Assembly: GCA_964622545.1 (NCBI GenBank) | Contig: CAZUQM010000012.1 | Location: forward strand, 92,054-156,053 | DNA: 64,000 nt | Origin: an uncultured Planctomycetales bacterium | GTDB taxonomy: Bacteria; Planctomycetota; Phycisphaerae; UBA1845; JAFGLZ01 | Direction: 5' to 3' | In this document: one piece after another, positions 3,657 through 28,327 of the stretch | Layout: each line of letters opens with the position of its first letter | How positions within the stretch are numbered: position 1 is the first letter of the stretch | The notes under the pieces: model-generated | Database searches by the model: none | What the model saw: the letters and a program-made list of their open reading frames with translations, nothing else | What the model was told of the DNA's origin: nothing | Program-made: the position numbers and the translations under genes

Positions 3657-4766
3657 ATGAAGGACGTGTACGCTCTGCCGGCGATGGATTCCGTCCAGAC
3701 GCCGTGCCTGGTGGTGTTTCCGTCGGTTATTCATCGCAATGTCGATCGCATGGCCGAGTTGCTGGGGGGGCTCCGTCGGCTGCGTCCACACATCAAGACG
3801 CACAAGTGCCGTGAGGTCATCGCGTTATTGATGGCCAGGGGCATCGACAAATTCAAGTGTGCGTCCATCGCTGAGGTGCGGATGCTGATCGAATGCGGTG
3901 TGCGTGACATTCAATTGGCCTATCCTCTGATCGGTCCGGGGGTGGATCGGCTCGCTGCACTCTTGGACGAGCATCGGGATGCGACCGTCTCGGTGACGGT
4001 GGACGATGGCGTCGCGGCCGGCATGCTGAACGAGGCCTGTCGCCGACGTGACAGGCCTGTGGATGTGCTGATCGACCTCGACGTGGGGATGCACCGCACG
4101 GGGATCGAGCCCGGACCCGCGGCGGATGCGCTGGCGATGGCGGTGGCCAAGATGTCACATTTGCGGCTACGGGGCCTGCACGCCTATGACGGCCACATCC
4201 GCGAACGGGCCGTGGAGGACCGACGCCCGCTGGTGGAGGCCGCGATGACCGGTCCGCTTGAGATGAAGCGGCGGCTGCGCGATTCGGGCCTCGTCGAGGG
4301 CCAGCCGACGTTGAGCACCTCGGGCACGCTGACGTTCATCGTGGCTAAGGATTTCGAGGGGATCGACGAGGTGACGCCCGGCACGTGGGTGTTCTGGGAT
4401 GTGACCTACAACGAGATCGACGGTCCTCGCTTTGAGTATGCAGCCCTGGTGGCGTCGCGCGTGGTGAGCCGGCCTTGTCGAGAAGGCGTTACGTTAGACG
4501 CCGGATCGAAGGGCGTGAGTCGCGACATCCCGGGTGATCCTGTGGTCATCGGGACGCAAGGCCTGAGGCTGGGGCACGCGAACGAAGAGCATCAGCCCTG
4601 CCAATGGGACGGGGACGGACCCAGGCCCGCGATCGGCGACGTCGTGCTGTTGGCCCCACGACACGTGTGTACGACCTTTTACCTCTACAGTCATGGTCTG
4701 GCGGTAGAGGAGGGGCGCGTCGTGGGTCGATGGACCGTCGGCTGTCGTCATGGCGACGACGAGTGA
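3657..4766 (+). CDS. D-TA family PLP-dependent enzyme (D-threonine aldolase / D-serine deaminase-like)
   Basis: 369-aa ORF. It has the PHIKTHKC PLP-lysine motif, an alanine-racemase N-terminal fold pattern, and a C-terminal HANEEH...PRHVCTTF block. Confidence 0.75.
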   Translation: MKDVYALPAMDSVQTPCLVVFPSVIHRNVDRMAELLGGLRRLRPHIKTHKCREVIALLMARGIDKFKCASIAEVRMLIECGVRDIQLAYPLIGPGVDRLAALLDEHRDATVSVTVDDGVAAGMLNEACRRRDRPVDVLIDLDVGMHRTGIEPGPAADALAMAVAKMSHLRLRGLHAYDGHIRERAVEDRRPLVEAAMTGPLEMKRRLRDSGLVEGQPTLSTSGTLTFIVAKDFEGIDEVTPGTWVFWDVTYNEIDGPRFEYAALVASRVVSRPCREGVTLDAGSKGVSRDIPGDPVVIGTQGLRLGHANEEHQPCQWDGDGPRPAIGDVVLLAPRHVCTTFYLYSHGLAVEEGRVVGRWTVGCRHGDDE

Positions 4767-4859
4767 CGTGGCAGAGCAGTCGAGCTCGGGCGTTGGGGCT
4801 TTTGAGCTCCGAGGGCGAGCCGACGGCAAGGGACGAGGAATGACCGGCTGACGCACGCT

Positions 4860-23809: not shown

Positions 23810-23883
<74 letters not shown>

Positions 23884-23973: not shown

Positions 23974-24125
23974 TTAGCCCAATCACCCTCGACTGGGGGA
24001 AGTGTAGCCCGGTCGCCCTCGACTGGGGGAAGTGTAGCCCGGTCGCCCTCGACTGGGACGGATGGGGATGAAGCTACACAGCCGGGGGCGGCTGTACCAC
24101 ATCAGCCGGGGGCGGCTGTGCTCCA
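23974..24125 (+). repeat. REP-like composite palindromic repeat cluster 0 (upstream of the RM gene)
   Basis: One degenerate plus two exact copies of GTAGCCCGGTCGCCCTCGACTGGG, with spacer GGAAGT or tail ACGGATGGGGATGAAGCTAC. Two copies of the hairpin unit (A/T)CAGCCGGGGGCGGCTGT follow. Same orientation as the intragenic clusters. Confidence 0.85.
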
Positions 24126-24235
24126 TGACGCACCGCACCCTAGGGTCCTTACGCGTTCAACCGCTTTGTCCGATTCTCGGGACGACGTTCCCGTCACGCT
24201 CGACATCCCACCGCAAATACGTAAGACTCTCCGGC

Positions 24236-27200
24236 ATGTCAGCCCAGCTATCCCCAGCATCCTTCGTCGCTAAATGGTCGGGCACGGCGCTGTCCGAACG
24301 CGCCGCCAGCCAAGAGCACTTCATCGACCTGTGCCACCTACTCGGCCAACCCACGCCGGCCGACCACGACGCCACCGGCGCCGAATACACCTTCGAGAAG
24401 TCCGTCGCCGTCACCGACGCCGCCAGCGCCGGCTCCAAGGGCGACCACGGCTTCGCCGACGTCTGGTGGAAGGGCAAGTTCGCCTGGGAGTACAAGCGCA
24501 AGGGCAAGCACAAGGACCTCACCGCCGCCTACCGCCAGCTCTGCCAATACCGCGAGGCGCTCGAGAACCCGCCGCTGCTCATCGTCAGCGACATCGCCCG
24601 AACCGAGATCCACACCAACTTCACCGGCCGGGCGAAACAGGTCCACACCATCCTGCTCGAAGACCTCGCCGAGCCCGCCTCGCTCGACCTGCTCCGCCGC
24701 GTCTTCACCGACCCGCTCTCGTTCGAGCCCGAGGTCACCGCCGAGCACGTCACCGAGGCCGTCGCCAAGGAGATCGGCCAGCTCGCCCTTCAGCTCCGCG
24801 CCCGCGGCCACGACCCGCACGACACCGCGCACTTCCTCATGAAGTCCATGTTCTGCCTCTTCGCCGAGGACATCCGGCTCCTACCGGCCGACCTGTTCCA
24901 GAAGCTCGTCGGCCAGTGGAAGTCCGACCCCCCCGAGCTGACCAAGGTGCTCACCGAGCTGTTCAGCAAGATGCAGACCGGCGGCGCGTTCGGCGTCGAC
25001 AAGATCGCCTTCTTCAACGGCGGGCTGTTCGATGACGCCCCCGCGCTCGAGCTCACCGACGACGAGGCCAACGTCCTGCTCACGGCCGCCCGGCAAGACT
25101 GGGGCAGTGTCGAGCCGGCCATCTTCGGCACGCTGTTCGAGCGATCGCTCGATCCGAACACCCGCGCCCAGATCGGCGCCCACTACACCAGCAAGGACGA
25201 CATCCTGCTCGTGGTCGAGCCCGTCGTGATGACGCCGCTCCGGCGCGAGTGGGCCGACGTCCAGGCCAAGGTCGCCGAACAACTCGAGCGCCGGGCCGCG
25301 GCCAAGACCAAACCCACGCGGACCAAGGCCGACCGCGCTATCGCTGACCTGCTCGACGGTTTCATCCATCGGCTGGCGACGGTCCGCATCCTCGACCCGG
25401 CCTGCGGCTCGGGCAACTTCCTGTACGTGGCCATTCAGCAGTTGCTCGGTCTGGAGAAAGAGGTCATCACGTACGCCGCCCGGCCCGACATAGGCCTCGG
25501 CCTGTTCCCCCAGGTCCGCCCGACGCAGTTGCACGGCATCGAGGTCAACCCCTATGCGGCCGAGCTGGCGCAGGTGGTCATCTGGATCGGATATTTGCAG
25601 TGGATGCGCGACAACGGCTTCACCGCCCCCAGCAACCCGGTGCTCGAACCGCTCCAGACCATCGAGAACCGCGATGCGATCCTCGATGTAGCCCGGTCGC
25701 CCTCGACTGGGGGAAGTGTAGCCCAGTCGCCCTCGACTGGGACGGATGGGGATGAAGCTACACAGCCGGGGGCGGCTGTACCACAACAGCCGGGGGCGGC
25801 TGTACCACAAGAAGATGTAGCCCGGTCGCCCTCGACTGGGGGAAGTGTAGCCCAGTCGCCCTCGACTGGGACGGATGGGGATGAAGCTACGCCACATCAG
25901 CCGGGGGCGGCTGTACCACATCAGCCGGGGGCGGCTGTGCCACATGAGATCCCCGATGCCAAGGGTGGCCCGGCAAGCTACCGCCGCAATCTCCCTCACA
26001 TTCAACCCGGTCAGCGTCCCGTCTTCGTCACTTTCTGCACACACAAGGGATGGGAGCTGCCTGAGTCGGTACGAGACCTGGTCATCACACACTGTCTCCA
26101 TGACGATAACTCGAAGCTGCAGATGCACGCGCTCGTCGTCATGCCAGACCACGTCCACCTACTCTTCACCCCGGGTCACGACAGCTACGGAAACCCGTAT
26201 GGACTCGCTGAGATCATGAGTGGGATCAAAGGCGCGTCAGCGCACAGTATCAACAAAGCACTGAAGCGTAAGGGACGGGTGTGGCAGGATGAGTCCTTTG
26301 ATCACATTCTCCGCCGGAACGAGAACCTCTTCGAGAAGGGGGAGTACATCTGCCAGAATCCCGTGCGAAAGGGACTCGTCCAGGATGAGAACGACTATCC
26401 CTGGTTGTGGCGCGAAAGCCATGTAGCCCAGTCGCCCTCGACTGGGACGGATGGGGATGAAGCTACACAGCCGGGGGCGGCTGTACCACAACAGCCGGGG
26501 GCGGCTGTGCCACATCAGCCGGGGGCGGCTGTGCCACATAGGCCCACTATCCCACCCTGGCCCGACGCCGACTTCATCATCGGCAACCCGCCGTTTCTCG
26601 GCTCGAAGCTGTTCCGACAGCAGGGTCTCGATGACGAGTACATCCAGGCCATGTTCGACACGTATGAGATTCCCAACACGTCCGACCTGTGCTGCTACTG
26701 GTTCGAGCGGGCGCGACAGGAACTGGAGAAGAACCCACTGCTCCGCGCCGGCCTGCTTGCCACGCAAGGCATCCGCGGCGGAGCGAACCGAAAGGTCCTC
26801 GAACGCATCGAGGACACCGGCGACATCTTCCTGGCCTGGTCGGATCGCAACTGGGTTCTGGATGGGGCTCACGTCCACGTGTCGATCGTCGGTTTCGATA
26901 ATGGCACCGAAAACGAGCGTATGCTTGACGGCAAGCCCGTTTCCGACATCAACGCCTCACTCACCGGCGACATCGACACGGGCAAGGCGAGCGCCTTGGC
27001 AGAGAACACGGGTATCGCCTTCATGGGCGATACGAAGGGCGGCAAGTTCGACATCACGTGGGACGAGGCGCGGGCGATGCTGCCGCAACCCAACCCCACC
27101 GGCAGCTTCAACTCCGAAGTCGTTCGTCCGTGGGTAAATGGGCTAGACATCACGCGACGCGCTCGCAGTATGTGGATCATCGACTTCGGCTGCGACATGC

Positions 27201-28327
27201 CCAAGGACGAAGCTGCCGGTTACGATGTGCCCTTCGGCTATGTCGAGACGCATGTCTGGCCGACACGCAAGGACAACCGACGCGCTGCTTATGCGAAGCG
27301 GTGGTGGTTGCATGTTGAACCACGACCAGAGCTGCGGCAACGAATCGCGCCATTGTCGCGCTTCCTCATTACCCCGCGGCTTACGAAATACCGACTGATT
27401 GCTTGGCACGACCAGCGAACCCTTCCCGATTGCCAAGTGATTGCCTTCGCCCGGTCCGACGACTACTTCTTCGGCGTGCTACACAGCGCGGTGCACGAGT
27501 TGTGGGCGCTTCGGATGGGCACGCAACTTGAGGACCGTCCGCGCTACACGCCGACGACGTGCTTCGAGACGTTCCCGCTGCCCTGGCCGCCGGGCGCCGA
27601 GCCCAATGTAGCCCAGTCGCCCTCGACTGGGACGGATGGGGATGAAGCTACACAGCCGGGGGCGGCTGTGCCACATCAGCCGGGGGCGGCTGTACCACAA
27701 GAAGATGTAGCCCAGTCGCCCTCGACTGGGGAAAGTGTAGCCCGGTCGCCCTCGACTGGGACGGATGGGGATGAAGATACACAGCCGGGGGCGGCTGTAC
27801 CACATCAGCCGGGGGCGGCTGTGCTACATGAGGCAGCTACCTCGCAAACCGCCGCCGCGATCCACCAGCGGATCTCCGACGCCGCGTGCGAGTTGAACGA
27901 GCAGCGCGAGCGGTGGCTCAACCCGCCGGAGTGGATCGACCCCATCGCCGAACAGGTCGACGCCGAGGACGACTTCGCCGACGTGCCGGCCGACGCCCGA
28001 CCGCTGATCCGCCATTCGGCCATCATGGCCCGGGCGGCCAAGGACGCCCGGCTCAAGAAGCGAACGCTGACGAACCTCTACAACGAGCGGCCGACGTGGC
28101 TGCGGATCGCCCACGAGAAGCTCGACCGCGCCGTCCTGGCCGCGTATGCCCACGTCGACCCCGACGGCGACTGGAGCGAAGACTGGGCCGAGGTGTGGAC
28201 CGAGACCGGCGCGGGCCAACGGCTACCCGACGACCACCCCCTCGCCGCCCGCCGCGCCGAGATCGATCAGCGGGTGCTGGCCAACCTGCTGCGAATCAAT
28301 CTCGCGAGGGCCGCAGCCCGGAGCTGA
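24236..28327 (+). CDS. MmeI-family (Type IIL) single-chain restriction-modification enzyme / N6-adenine DNA methyltransferase, carrying in-frame REP and RAYT insertions
   Basis: ORF 24062..28327. The first 58 codons are translated repeat, so the probable start is ATG 24236 (MSAQLSPASFVAKWSGTALSERAASQEHFIDLCHLLG). Family blocks: nuclease-like GFADVWWKGKFAWEYKRKG, motif I ILDPACGSGNFLY, motif IV IIGNPPFLG, RPWVNG, WIIDF, CFETFPLPWP, TLTNLYNERPTWL. Two blocks are foreign to the family, at 25688-26539 and 27608-27829. Confidence 0.75.
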   Translation: MSAQLSPASFVAKWSGTALSERAASQEHFIDLCHLLGQPTPADHDATGAEYTFEKSVAVTDAASAGSKGDHGFADVWWKGKFAWEYKRKGKHKDLTAAYRQLCQYREALENPPLLIVSDIARTEIHTNFTGRAKQVHTILLEDLAEPASLDLLRRVFTDPLSFEPEVTAEHVTEAVAKEIGQLALQLRARGHDPHDTAHFLMKSMFCLFAEDIRLLPADLFQKLVGQWKSDPPELTKVLTELFSKMQTGGAFGVDKIAFFNGGLFDDAPALELTDDEANVLLTAARQDWGSVEPAIFGTLFERSLDPNTRAQIGAHYTSKDDILLVVEPVVMTPLRREWADVQAKVAEQLERRAAAKTKPTRTKADRAIADLLDGFIHRLATVRILDPACGSGNFLYVAIQQLLGLEKEVITYAARPDIGLGLFPQVRPTQLHGIEVNPYAAELAQVVIWIGYLQWMRDNGFTAPSNPVLEPLQTIENRDAILDVARSPSTGGSVAQSPSTGTDGDEATQPGAAVPQQPGAAVPQEDVARSPSTGGSVAQSPSTGTDGDEATPHQPGAAVPHQPGAAVPHEIPDAKGGPASYRRNLPHIQPGQRPVFVTFCTHKGWELPESVRDLVITHCLHDDNSKLQMHALVVMPDHVHLLFTPGHDSYGNPYGLAEIMSGIKGASAHSINKALKRKGRVWQDESFDHILRRNENLFEKGEYICQNPVRKGLVQDENDYPWLWRESHVAQSPSTGTDGDEATQPGAAVPQQPGAAVPHQPGAAVPHRPTIPPWPDADFIIGNPPFLGSKLFRQQGLDDEYIQAMFDTYEIPNTSDLCCYWFERARQELEKNPLLRAGLLATQGIRGGANRKVLERIEDTGDIFLAWSDRNWVLDGAHVHVSIVGFDNGTENERMLDGKPVSDINASLTGDIDTGKASALAENTGIAFMGDTKGGKFDITWDEARAMLPQPNPTGSFNSEVVRPWVNGLDITRRARSMWIIDFGCDMPKDEAAGYDVPFGYVETHVWPTRKDNRRAAYAKRWWLHVEPRPELRQRIAPLSRFLITPRLTKYRLIAWHDQRTLPDCQVIAFARSDDYFFGVLHSAVHELWALRMGTQLEDRPRYTPTTCFETFPLPWPPGAEPNVAQSPSTGTDGDEATQPGAAVPHQPGAAVPQEDVAQSPSTGESVARSPSTGTDGDEDTQPGAAVPHQPGAAVLHEAATSQTAAAIHQRISDAACELNEQRERWLNPPEWIDPIAEQVDAEDDFADVPADARPLIRHSAIMARAAKDARLKKRTLTNLYNERPTWLRIAHEKLDRAVLAAYAHVDPDGDWSEDWAEVWTETGAGQRLPDDHPLAARRAEIDQRVLANLLRINLARAAARS
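25688..25945 (+). repeat. REP-like repeat cluster 1 (intragenic, 258 nt)
   Basis: Two tandem composite units. Each is a 30-nt unit, a 44-nt unit GTAGCCCAGTCGCCCTCGACTGGGACGGATGGGGATGAAGCTAC, then two 24-nt ACAGCCGGGGGCGGCTGTACCACA-type units, joined by AGAAGAT. It translates as VARSPSTGGSVAQSPSTGTDGDEATQPGAAVPQQPGAAVPQED... Confidence 0.9.
25946..26422 (+). other. REP-associated tyrosine transposase (RAYT, HUH/Y1, IS200-like) coding segment without own start or stop
   Basis: 159 codons: EIPDAKGGPASYRRNLPHIQPGQRPVFVTFCTH...ALVVMPDHVHLLFTP (the HUH motif is HVH)...GRVWQDESFDHILR...GEYICQNPVRKGLV (catalytic Tyr helix)...DYPWLWRESH. It is flanked on both sides by GTAG-hairpin repeats. Confidence 0.8.
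26423..26539 (+). repeat. REP-like repeat cluster 2 (intragenic, 117 nt)
   Basis: One 44-nt GTAG unit followed by three ACAGCCGGGGGCGGCTGT hairpin units. It translates as VAQSPSTGTDGDEATQPGAAVPQQPGAAVPHQPGAAVPH. Confidence 0.9.
27608..27829 (+). repeat. REP-like repeat cluster 3 (intragenic, 222 nt = 74 codons)
   Basis: Same composite units in the same orientation and frame. It lies between host blocks CFETFPLPWPPGAEPN and AATSQTAAAIHQRISDAACELNEQRERWLNPPEW. Confidence 0.9.

Follow-up and report, generated by a model that had tools for sequence, protein, structure and literature searches.

The window analyzed here is a 64,000-nt stretch of contig CAZUQM010000012.1 (positions 92,054 to 156,053, forward strand; GenBank assembly GCA_964622545.1) from an uncultured Planctomycetales bacterium. 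It carries a type IIL restriction-modification (R-M) gene of the MmeI family. Within the open reading frame (ORF) of this gene are arrays of short palindromes of the repetitive extragenic palindrome (REP) type and a REP-associated tyrosine transposase (RAYT). Our subject is the 3′-most of these arrays, which falls between the codons for the target recognition domain (TRD) and those for the C-terminal helical bundle of the enzyme. We call this place site 2, and the place of the RAYT, just before methyltransferase (MTase) motif IV, site 1. The site 2 array is probably a RAYT-less REP array that belongs to the RAYT of the same gene and is translated as a spacer, predicted to be disordered, in the TRD/C-terminal linker.

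The R-M Gene, Its REP Arrays and the Nested RAYT

The host protein contains the Pfam domains MmeI_hel, MmeI_Mtase, MmeI_TRD and MmeI_C, plus an internal Y1_Tnp domain. It matches MmeI (PDB 5HR4) in phmmer with an E-value of 1.7e-48 and shares with it the series of nuclease, helical spacer, gamma-class N6A MTase, TRD and C-terminal bundle, including the PD-ExK nuclease motif and MTase motifs I and IV. The two proteins differ in that they are only about 22% identical and in that the window protein has 284 and 74 additional residues at two linkers between these elements. Enzymes of the MmeI family methylate a single strand and cleave about 20 nt away. In an alignment of orthologues, the PD-ExK residues D75/E85/K87, motif I (DPACGSGNFL) and motif IV (NPPF) are intact and invariant. 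A filled (insert-bearing) and an empty orthologue that are 91% identical in nucleotides gave a dN/dS ratio of 0.15. When the window gene was compared with empty orthologues, the ratio was 0.20-0.24, with dS near saturation. Judged from these sequences, the host enzyme looks to be under purifying selection and the gene appears alive.

The site 2 array consists of seven hairpin units, three GTAG-tagged A units and four inverted B units, arranged as two doublets of the form A(n)-linker-B(n) (Table 1). The first-pass annotation of this DNA had described a 222-nt in-frame repeat here. Its coordinates were exact, the start at 27608 is a codon boundary of the ORF, and the flanking peptides that it quoted were correct. 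The A unit reads GTAG-CCCRGTCG-CCCT-CGACTGGG and has a 30-nt period in tandem; the B unit reads CACAGCCG-GGGG-CGGCTGTR-CCACA and has a 24-nt period. Both are perfect palindromes with an 8 bp stem and a 4-nt loop, and both keep a constant codon phase. The reverse complement of B (GTGG-CACAGCCG-CCCC-CGGCTGTG) is ~75% identical to A. Thus, each doublet is a REP pair in inverted orientation, resembling a bacterial interspersed mosaic element (BIME) or REPIN. The GTAG foot, which defines the main REP super-family (PMC3733652), opens every A unit except the degenerate first unit of the cluster upstream of the gene, and the opposite strand of B has GTGG. In single-stranded form, the array has a fold z-score of -5.2, i.e., it folds 5.2 standard deviations better than shuffled sequences.

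Table 1. Features at the R-M locus (positions in the window).
Feature	Position	Strand	Remarks
MmeI-family type IIL R-M gene	24236..28327	+	1363 aa, no internal stop; identical to P0001; orthologues of ~1000 aa
REP array, site 2	27608-27829	+	222 nt = 74 codons, residues 1125-1198
Site 2 array, doublet 1	27608..27700	+	A 27608-27631; linker 27632-27652; B 27653-27676; B 27677-27700
Spacer GAAGAT between doublets	27701..27706	+	also in the site 1 left arm
Site 2 array, doublet 2	27707..27829	+	A 27707-27736; A 27737-27760; linker 27761-27781; B 27782-27805; B 27806-27829
Leftover native linker EAATSQTAAAIHQ	27830..27868	+	runs into the first C-terminal-bundle helix (RISDAACELNEQRERWLNPPEW)
Left REP arm of RAYT cassette, site 1	25688..25945	+	two doublets; 258 nt, in frame; just before motif IV
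Class-2 RAYT	25946..26422	+	in frame with host gene; Pfam Y1_Tnp, NCBIfam, translation, AlphaFold
Right REP arm of RAYT cassette	26423..26539	+	A, linker, B, B, B; 117 nt, in frame
Extragenic REP array	23975..24126	+	degenerate A, A, A, linker, B, B; length 152 nt, which three does not divide; pattern searches
tRNA-Arg(ACG)	23810..23883	+	ARAGORN; 350 nt upstream of R-M gene

The window holds four clusters of this one REP family: the site 2 array, the two arms of the RAYT cassette and an extragenic array. A scan allowing up to three mismatches found 11 A and 13 B matches in the 64 kb, against 0.03 and 0.00 expected. All 24 are on the + strand between 23978 and 27828 (3.9 kb), 20 of them intragenic. 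No other hairpin family was detected in the window, where the scan counts equaled those of shuffled controls. The earlier statement that the rest of the window is free of such repeats therefore holds outside 23975-27829, but it overlooked the extragenic cluster. This cluster is located between the tRNA-Arg and the start codon and would occupy the promoter or 5′ untranslated region of the R-M gene. A scan of the locus for promoters and terminators gave no signal above shuffled controls.

An exact scan of genome and metagenome contigs found the exact A unit in three planctomycete contigs from other samples. There it is extragenic, located after stop codons or upstream of a murC-like gene, and it pairs with B-like hairpins and other GTAG hairpins. 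Together with the GTAG-tagged palindromes and the family assignment of the flanked RAYT (see below), these copies bear out the earlier identification of the repeats as REPs. The stems vary by lineage: CCCAGTCG/CGACTGGG in the window, CCCAGCCG/CGGCTGGG in L004 and L006, and CCCAGACG/CGTCTGGG in L005 and L007. Stem position 6 is accordingly T:A, C:G or A:T, with compensatory changes in both arms, and the encoded peptide drifts along with the stem (VAQSPSTG, VAQPPSAG, VAQTPSSG). Thus, it is the hairpin that is conserved and not the peptide.

The RAYT at site 1 encodes 159 aa and passes the NCBIfam model NF047646 (REP_Tyr_transpos) with 90.6 bits against a cutoff of 80. It has the HuH motif PDHVHLL, VWQDE (WQ) and YICQNPVRKG (YI..NP), matching the DHVH, WQ and YI..NP signatures of class-2 TnpA_Y1 (PMC6006769). 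It lacks its own start and stop codons: no in-frame ATG is present at the start of the domain, and the frame continues into the host. Only a GTG is found there, at 25937 within the last B hairpin. The nested RAYT can only be produced as part of the whole 1363-aa host or as a fusion, truncated at the N-terminus, to the host's C-terminal half. The arms of the cassette are direct arrays around the RAYT, with repeats of more than 100 nt. Like these arms, the site 2 array starts with a GTAG-A unit and ends in ..GCTGTGCTACAT, and it has no transposase. With the left arm it shares ~96% identity (~8 mismatches over 216 nt) and the GAAGAT spacer. Two independent insertions in this gene had been proposed. 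The two intragenic sites are confirmed, but they are not independent in sequence.

On the + strand, the composite repeat has a single stop-free frame, as frames +1 and +2 contain TAG (from GTAG) and TGA. The three intragenic arrays and the RAYT are all read in that sole open frame, and the lengths of the intragenic pieces (258, 477, 117 and 222 nt) are all multiples of three. Stand-alone homologues of the RAYT have 160-260 aa, are 60-70% identical to it and possess their own start and stop codons. They often translate the flanking REPs at both ends in the same frame (N-terminal NVGQPPSAV..., C-terminal ...WLWREWVEG-NVAQPPPAEH). In this RAYT clade the arms could thus be translated already in the stand-alone genes, and we infer that they may be pre-adapted to translation.

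Linker Position and Recurrence in Other Genes

The alignment to MmeI puts site 2 at MmeI residues ~825-830, where the TRD (621-825) meets the C-terminal helical bundle (826-919; PMC4833311). Orthologues of ~1000 aa (65-80% identical) have a short linker at this place, e.g., ..PWAPGKEP-ADHPAHK-RISDAATELNEQRERWLNPPEW.., and the distance from anchor to anchor is 25 aa in the orthologues that are empty at site 2 vs. 106 aa in the window protein. An AlphaFold model of the empty orthologue P0005 (pLDDT 84.9, pTM 0.74) has 5HR4 as its best PDB match (Foldseek, TM 0.76). The insertion point falls within a 14-residue coil (833-846) directly before a helix (847-867). In a model of residues 164-1363 of the window protein, the 74-residue insert has a pLDDT of ~30 and no secondary structure, with pLDDT 80-98 for the TRD, 87-97 for the C-terminal bundle and 85-92 for the nested RAYT domain. 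The insert peptide is rich in A, P, G, S, T, Q and V. The array is thus predicted to encode a disordered 74-residue spacer at the TRD/C-terminal bundle boundary. The surface or linker position first proposed for site 2 agrees with the 5HR4 alignment, the coil in P0005 and the predicted disorder of the insert. The site is not buried in the models, and a native low-complexity linker was not seen in the orthologues.

Site 2 could be scored in 100 of the 120 best homologues, which come mostly from metagenome-assembled genomes (MAGs) of Phycisphaerae/Planctomycetota. The short native linker that the first-pass annotation gave for MmeI-family proteins is found in 69 of these, which are empty; most orthologues have seven residues here. 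Eight have a slightly longer linker, 19 have 36-150 extra residues and four have a whole transposase cassette. Site 1, the linker between ..RDAILD and WPDADFIIGNPPF, is occupied likewise. A Y1 HuH motif is present in 14/120 orthologues, at 53-75% identity. These transposases belong to two unrelated Y1 classes, and both sites are used by both classes. The window protein has the class-2 RAYT at site 1, and P0002, P0003 and P0004 have it at site 2. A class-3 TnpA_Y1 (NHVH, SWWT, YVRNQ), a class described for Planctomycetes (PMC6006769), occupies site 1 of nine proteins and site 2 of P0112. The class-3 cassettes carry hairpins of their own, with a CCGA foot and in both orientations. Class-3 Y1 domains were seen in frame and without a stop codon in the MmeI-family genes L008 5001-9239, L009 5001-8630 and L012 2377-6438. 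Filled genes are scattered in a neighbor-joining tree of the host proteins, and the nearest neighbor of the window protein is P0112, with its class-3 Y1 domain at site 2. Because this tree is rough and star-shaped, the scatter is indicative only.

Insert sequences and lengths are unrelated between lineages. The junctions of the arrays shift by 0-2 codons, and the nucleotides 5′ of them are GAT, AAT, CCT, TTT, CGT and AAC. Apart from a T preceding GTAG, which may belong to the repeat itself, the junctions gave no consensus target motif, and no target duplication is visible there. Hairpins are confined to filled genes; the empty L010, L011 and L013 have none at either linker. The 3-5 kb flanks of the filled genes contain no hairpins of the respective REP family, and this includes L007, a gene with 13 hairpins at three sites and no RAYT.

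Presence/absence polymorphism, suggested earlier as a check, is seen in two pairs of orthologues. At 91% nucleotide identity, the filled L012 exceeds the empty L013 by 882 nt at site 1 and by 162 nt at site 2, and each length is divisible by three. L005 and L007 show synteny and ~99.6% identity once a swapped TRD segment is set aside, and a 618-nt block comprising a RAYT and one arm distinguishes them at site 2. In the RAYT-less L007 allele, the start of the left arm is joined to the end of the right arm. The number of units at site 1 also varies between near-identical alleles, with one in P0025 and three in P0003 and P0016. Between L005 245-4246 and L007 5001-8390, 134 of 145 mismatches lie in nt ~2100-2700 of the gene, where the TRD is encoded. 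It looks as if recombination had exchanged the DNA specificity here, a process known in the MmeI family.

In-frame repeat-encoded inserts were also observed at third sites, between ..VHVSILGFG and LDGRPV in P0003/P0016, and in P0024 and P0057. Among them are AKPVAQTPPSGVVAQTPPSGQAQVRAPVLQGP in the region of the MTase and TRD and, in P0024, 60 aa that follow CYWFERAR. The two main linkers carry inserts such as SPSPLKGEGRGEG or PSPPPEGGPSPVEGEG in further orthologues (site 1 in P0014, P0054 and P0104; site 2 in P0031 and P0034), and from their sequences these look like translations of other palindromic repeat families. A separate Y1_Tnp gene (L011 8242-9060) is located ~2 kb downstream of the empty orthologue P0019, and two phage-integrase genes follow the empty orthologue P0042 (L013 6020-8234). 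Such neighbors hint that R-M genes of this family may be located in mobile or variable regions.

Close relatives of the window RAYT are also nested in other genes. An exhaustive HMMER search with the window RAYT gave ten long proteins among the best 150, and the RAYT is internal in each. By Pfam and sequence, the hosts are valyl-tRNA synthetase (ValRS), alanyl-tRNA synthetase (AlaRS, twice), RecG, PurH (twice), a hydantoinase-like protein, ThiE and another protein with an MmeI_Mtase domain. Repeat-encoded peptides flank the RAYT in these proteins (P0387, P0354, P0370, P0272 (L014), P0368, P0361, P0381, P0268 and P0241), and in the MmeI_Mtase-domain protein the flanking repeat VAQPPSAGATGEGAQPGAAGPQ is of the A/B REP type of the window. 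At least the ValRS hosts come from Phycisphaeraceae MAGs, and a full-length ValRS cluster member of 1302 aa exists. One AlaRS host is named 'alanyl-tRNA synthetase/REP element-mobilizing transposase RayT' in IMG. The RecG example (L014) has a frameshift near its 3′ end (4400-4800), and RecG_dom3_C is annotated as an ORF of its own, which reflects either a pseudogene or an error of assembly. No perfect hairpins were found in L014. The frameshift and the lack of perfect hairpins make this example weak support for essential genes staying intact. In a RAYT phylogeny, the nested RAYTs are 70-74% alike vs. 67% to stand-alone RAYTs, which does not separate a single capture from repeated captures. From these sequences, in-frame nesting appears to be general in this RAYT clade and to extend beyond the R-M gene.

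Origin of the Site 2 Array

In the reading that we favor, the array would be two non-autonomous REP doublets that belong to the nested RAYT 1.2-1.9 kb upstream. Transcription and translation of the host gene would run through them, in the one frame of the repeat that has no stops. This reading draws on the nature of the units and their palindromic form, on their relatedness to the RAYT arms, on the constraints on frame and length, on the linker position, and on the recurrence and polymorphism at the site. Since the spacer is predicted to be disordered, both flanking domains could still fold, and the array may be tolerated because of its inter-domain location. Because the host enzyme looks to be under purifying selection, only copies that preserve the frame and fall within linkers would be expected to survive. 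We infer that the array arose by local copying from the RAYT cassette. Possible routes are RAYT-mediated single-strand transposition of REP units, copying of the two-doublet block by replication or recombination, and later homogenization by gene conversion. We regard the case as about evenly balanced for local block copying, whether by the RAYT or by replication/recombination; homogenization of old arrays by gene conversion is a minor possibility. The first-pass annotation had offered local hopping, selection or target preference for this gene. The first two fit the clustering of 24 units within 3.9 kb, the lengths in multiples of three and the use of the only open frame. Strict targeting of this gene is not supported: the junctions shift, and the RAYT clade is also nested in unrelated genes.

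Several points weigh against this reading. A protein search with the 74-aa REP peptide passed nothing, the parent protein included, presumably due to composition filtering. Protein-based searches detect only genes that are in frame, which creates a survivorship bias with respect to disruptive insertions. The N-terminal MTase half is poorly modeled in the insert-bearing protein, and little can therefore be read from the model on site 1. With a 284-aa insertion just before motif IV, the open frame could still encode an inactive enzyme. Finally, the likeness to the cassette arm could reflect gene conversion and not recent copying.

The strongest alternative, which we consider possible but would not bet on, is that the array is a solo remnant. 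A former REP-RAYT-REP cassette at site 2 would have lost its RAYT by recombination between the direct-repeat arms, as in solo long terminal repeats, and the site 1 RAYT would be a second copy or a relocated element. The same RAYT clade does occupy site 2 in three orthologues, the arms of the window cassette are direct repeats of >100 nt, and the RAYT-less L007 allele joins the start of the left arm to the end of the right arm, although the 618-nt difference from L005 can also be read as an insertion. The units themselves speak both ways. The second doublet at site 2 has the 21-nt linker of the right arm and not the 27-nt variant of the left arm, but the array retains the left arm's two-doublet layout and terminates in two B units, as against three in the right arm. 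RAYTs are also generally single-copy and thought not to move themselves (PMC5581495).

It is unlikely that the array is kept for a function of its own, such as setting the spacing between TRD and bundle, attenuating or stabilizing the mRNA as a hairpin, or serving as a recombination substrate (on/off or linker length), or that it reflects sequence-specific targeting of this gene family. The reoccupation of the same two linkers by two Y1 classes would suit such a role, as would the confinement of REP hairpins to the gene even in the RAYT-less L007 and the differing copy number between near-identical alleles. Most orthologues, however, work without an insert, and where inserts exist their sequence and length are unrelated between lineages and their junctions shift. 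The RAYT clade is likewise nested in unrelated genes, and no terminator-like signal was found at the locus.

We think it very improbable that we see a pseudogene in decay that took two hits of mobile DNA and whose frame is open by chance in a 66% GC genome. GC-rich DNA does yield long spurious ORFs, of which many overlap in the window, the chance that frame and length fit for one array is only about 1/9, and a large insertion before motif IV might kill the enzyme. Against this stand 1363 stop-free codons, four separate pieces that are all multiples of three in the single open frame, a RAYT that unlike its stand-alone relatives has no stop codon, intact catalytic motifs, dN/dS of 0.15-0.24, and the same architecture in the 14 Y1-bearing orthologues at 53-75% identity. 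Expansion of a native low-complexity coding linker by slippage, which the low-complexity peptide and the tandem periods of 24 and 30 nt might suggest, can hardly account for perfect GTAG-footed palindromes identical to the RAYT arms and to extragenic copies in other genomes, for stems that covary between lineages while the peptide changes, or for the 7-aa linker of most orthologues.

Relation to Known Elements and Implications

The repeats resemble GTAG REP/BIME/REPIN systems with a RAYT (TnpA_REP): they are short GC-rich palindromes with a 5′ GTAG foot, occur in both orientations and in doublets and clusters, flank a class-2 Y1 HuH transposase and have stems that covary by lineage. They differ in that most units of the window lie within a gene and are translated, the arms on either side of the RAYT are direct and not inverted arrays, the RAYT has no start or stop, and the copies in the window fall within 3.9 kb. 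In-frame REPs have precedents. Di Nocera et al. (2013; PMC3733652) described single, dimeric and clustered GTAG/CGTC REPs encoding 20-82 aa, with double insertions in one gene, many cases in Opitutus terrae of the Planctomycetes-Verrucomicrobia-Chlamydiae group and others in Thauera. They equated some of these with Rickettsia palindromic elements (RPEs) and proposed that intragenic REPs lie within linkers or loops that are flexible. Their survey, in contrast to the locus described here, reports no in-frame nested RAYT, no R-M host and no recurrence at homologous sites across orthologues. RPEs (Ogata et al., 2000, cited in PMC3733652) are also selfish palindromic DNA that sits in frame in coding genes and is tolerated as surface segments, but they are unrelated in sequence, are longer single units, and have neither a transposase nor tandem doublet arrays. 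As in-frame intragenic REPs are known from both sources, the site 2 array by itself is another member of a documented class.

The cassette and its RAYT-less derivative parallel the IS200/IS605 family and its palindrome-associated and miniature inverted-repeat transposable elements, where the autonomous form is hairpin arms plus a Y1 transposase and the non-autonomous form is arms only; a target-site duplication was not seen here. Unlike in IS200/IS605, no defined target tetranucleotide could be derived for the arrays, the arms are multi-unit arrays, and RAYTs are regarded as domesticated single-copy genes. Inteins offer a likeness of lifestyle and not of homology, i.e., a selfish or domesticated nuclease gene in frame inside host genes, essential ones included, without expression signals of its own. 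The nested RAYT has no splicing domain, however, stays in the mature protein, and occupies linkers and not active-site motifs. An intein identity was considered and rejected, as Pfam finds only Y1_Tnp and MmeI domains and the flanks are REP-coded repeats. Our literature search returned no RAYT nested in frame without start and stop, whether in the MmeI family, ValRS, AlaRS, RecG or PurH, and neither the reuse of two linkers by two Y1 classes in one gene family nor natural filled, empty and solo alleles were described in the literature searched.

REPs and RAYTs are textbook 'extragenic' elements. This locus supplies natural filled/empty pairs and RAYTs that are made only within a host protein, and it opens target choice, excision or recombination, and the function of a RAYT as an internal domain to experimental test. 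For the engineering of R-M enzymes, it points to two places where the MmeI scaffold accommodates 50-330 additional residues. For annotation, 'fusion' proteins that were dropped as errors in earlier surveys (PMC6006769) may be real. We tentatively suggest, as an idea that may well prove wrong, that REP-RAYT-REP cassettes in Phycisphaerae/Planctomycetota have evolved into 'translated' in-frame elements, with arms that have one stop-free frame and encode harmless disordered linkers, a RAYT that has lost its start and stop, and RAYT-less derivatives that live, like the cassette, as domain or linker insertions in host proteins, i.e., an intein-like safe harbor without splicing. If true, the hosts would be MmeI-type R-M enzymes, with two preferred linkers, as well as ValRS, AlaRS, RecG and PurH. 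The promoter, the ribosome and the purifying selection of the host would then express and protect the transposase, and mobile R-M genes could ferry it between genomes.

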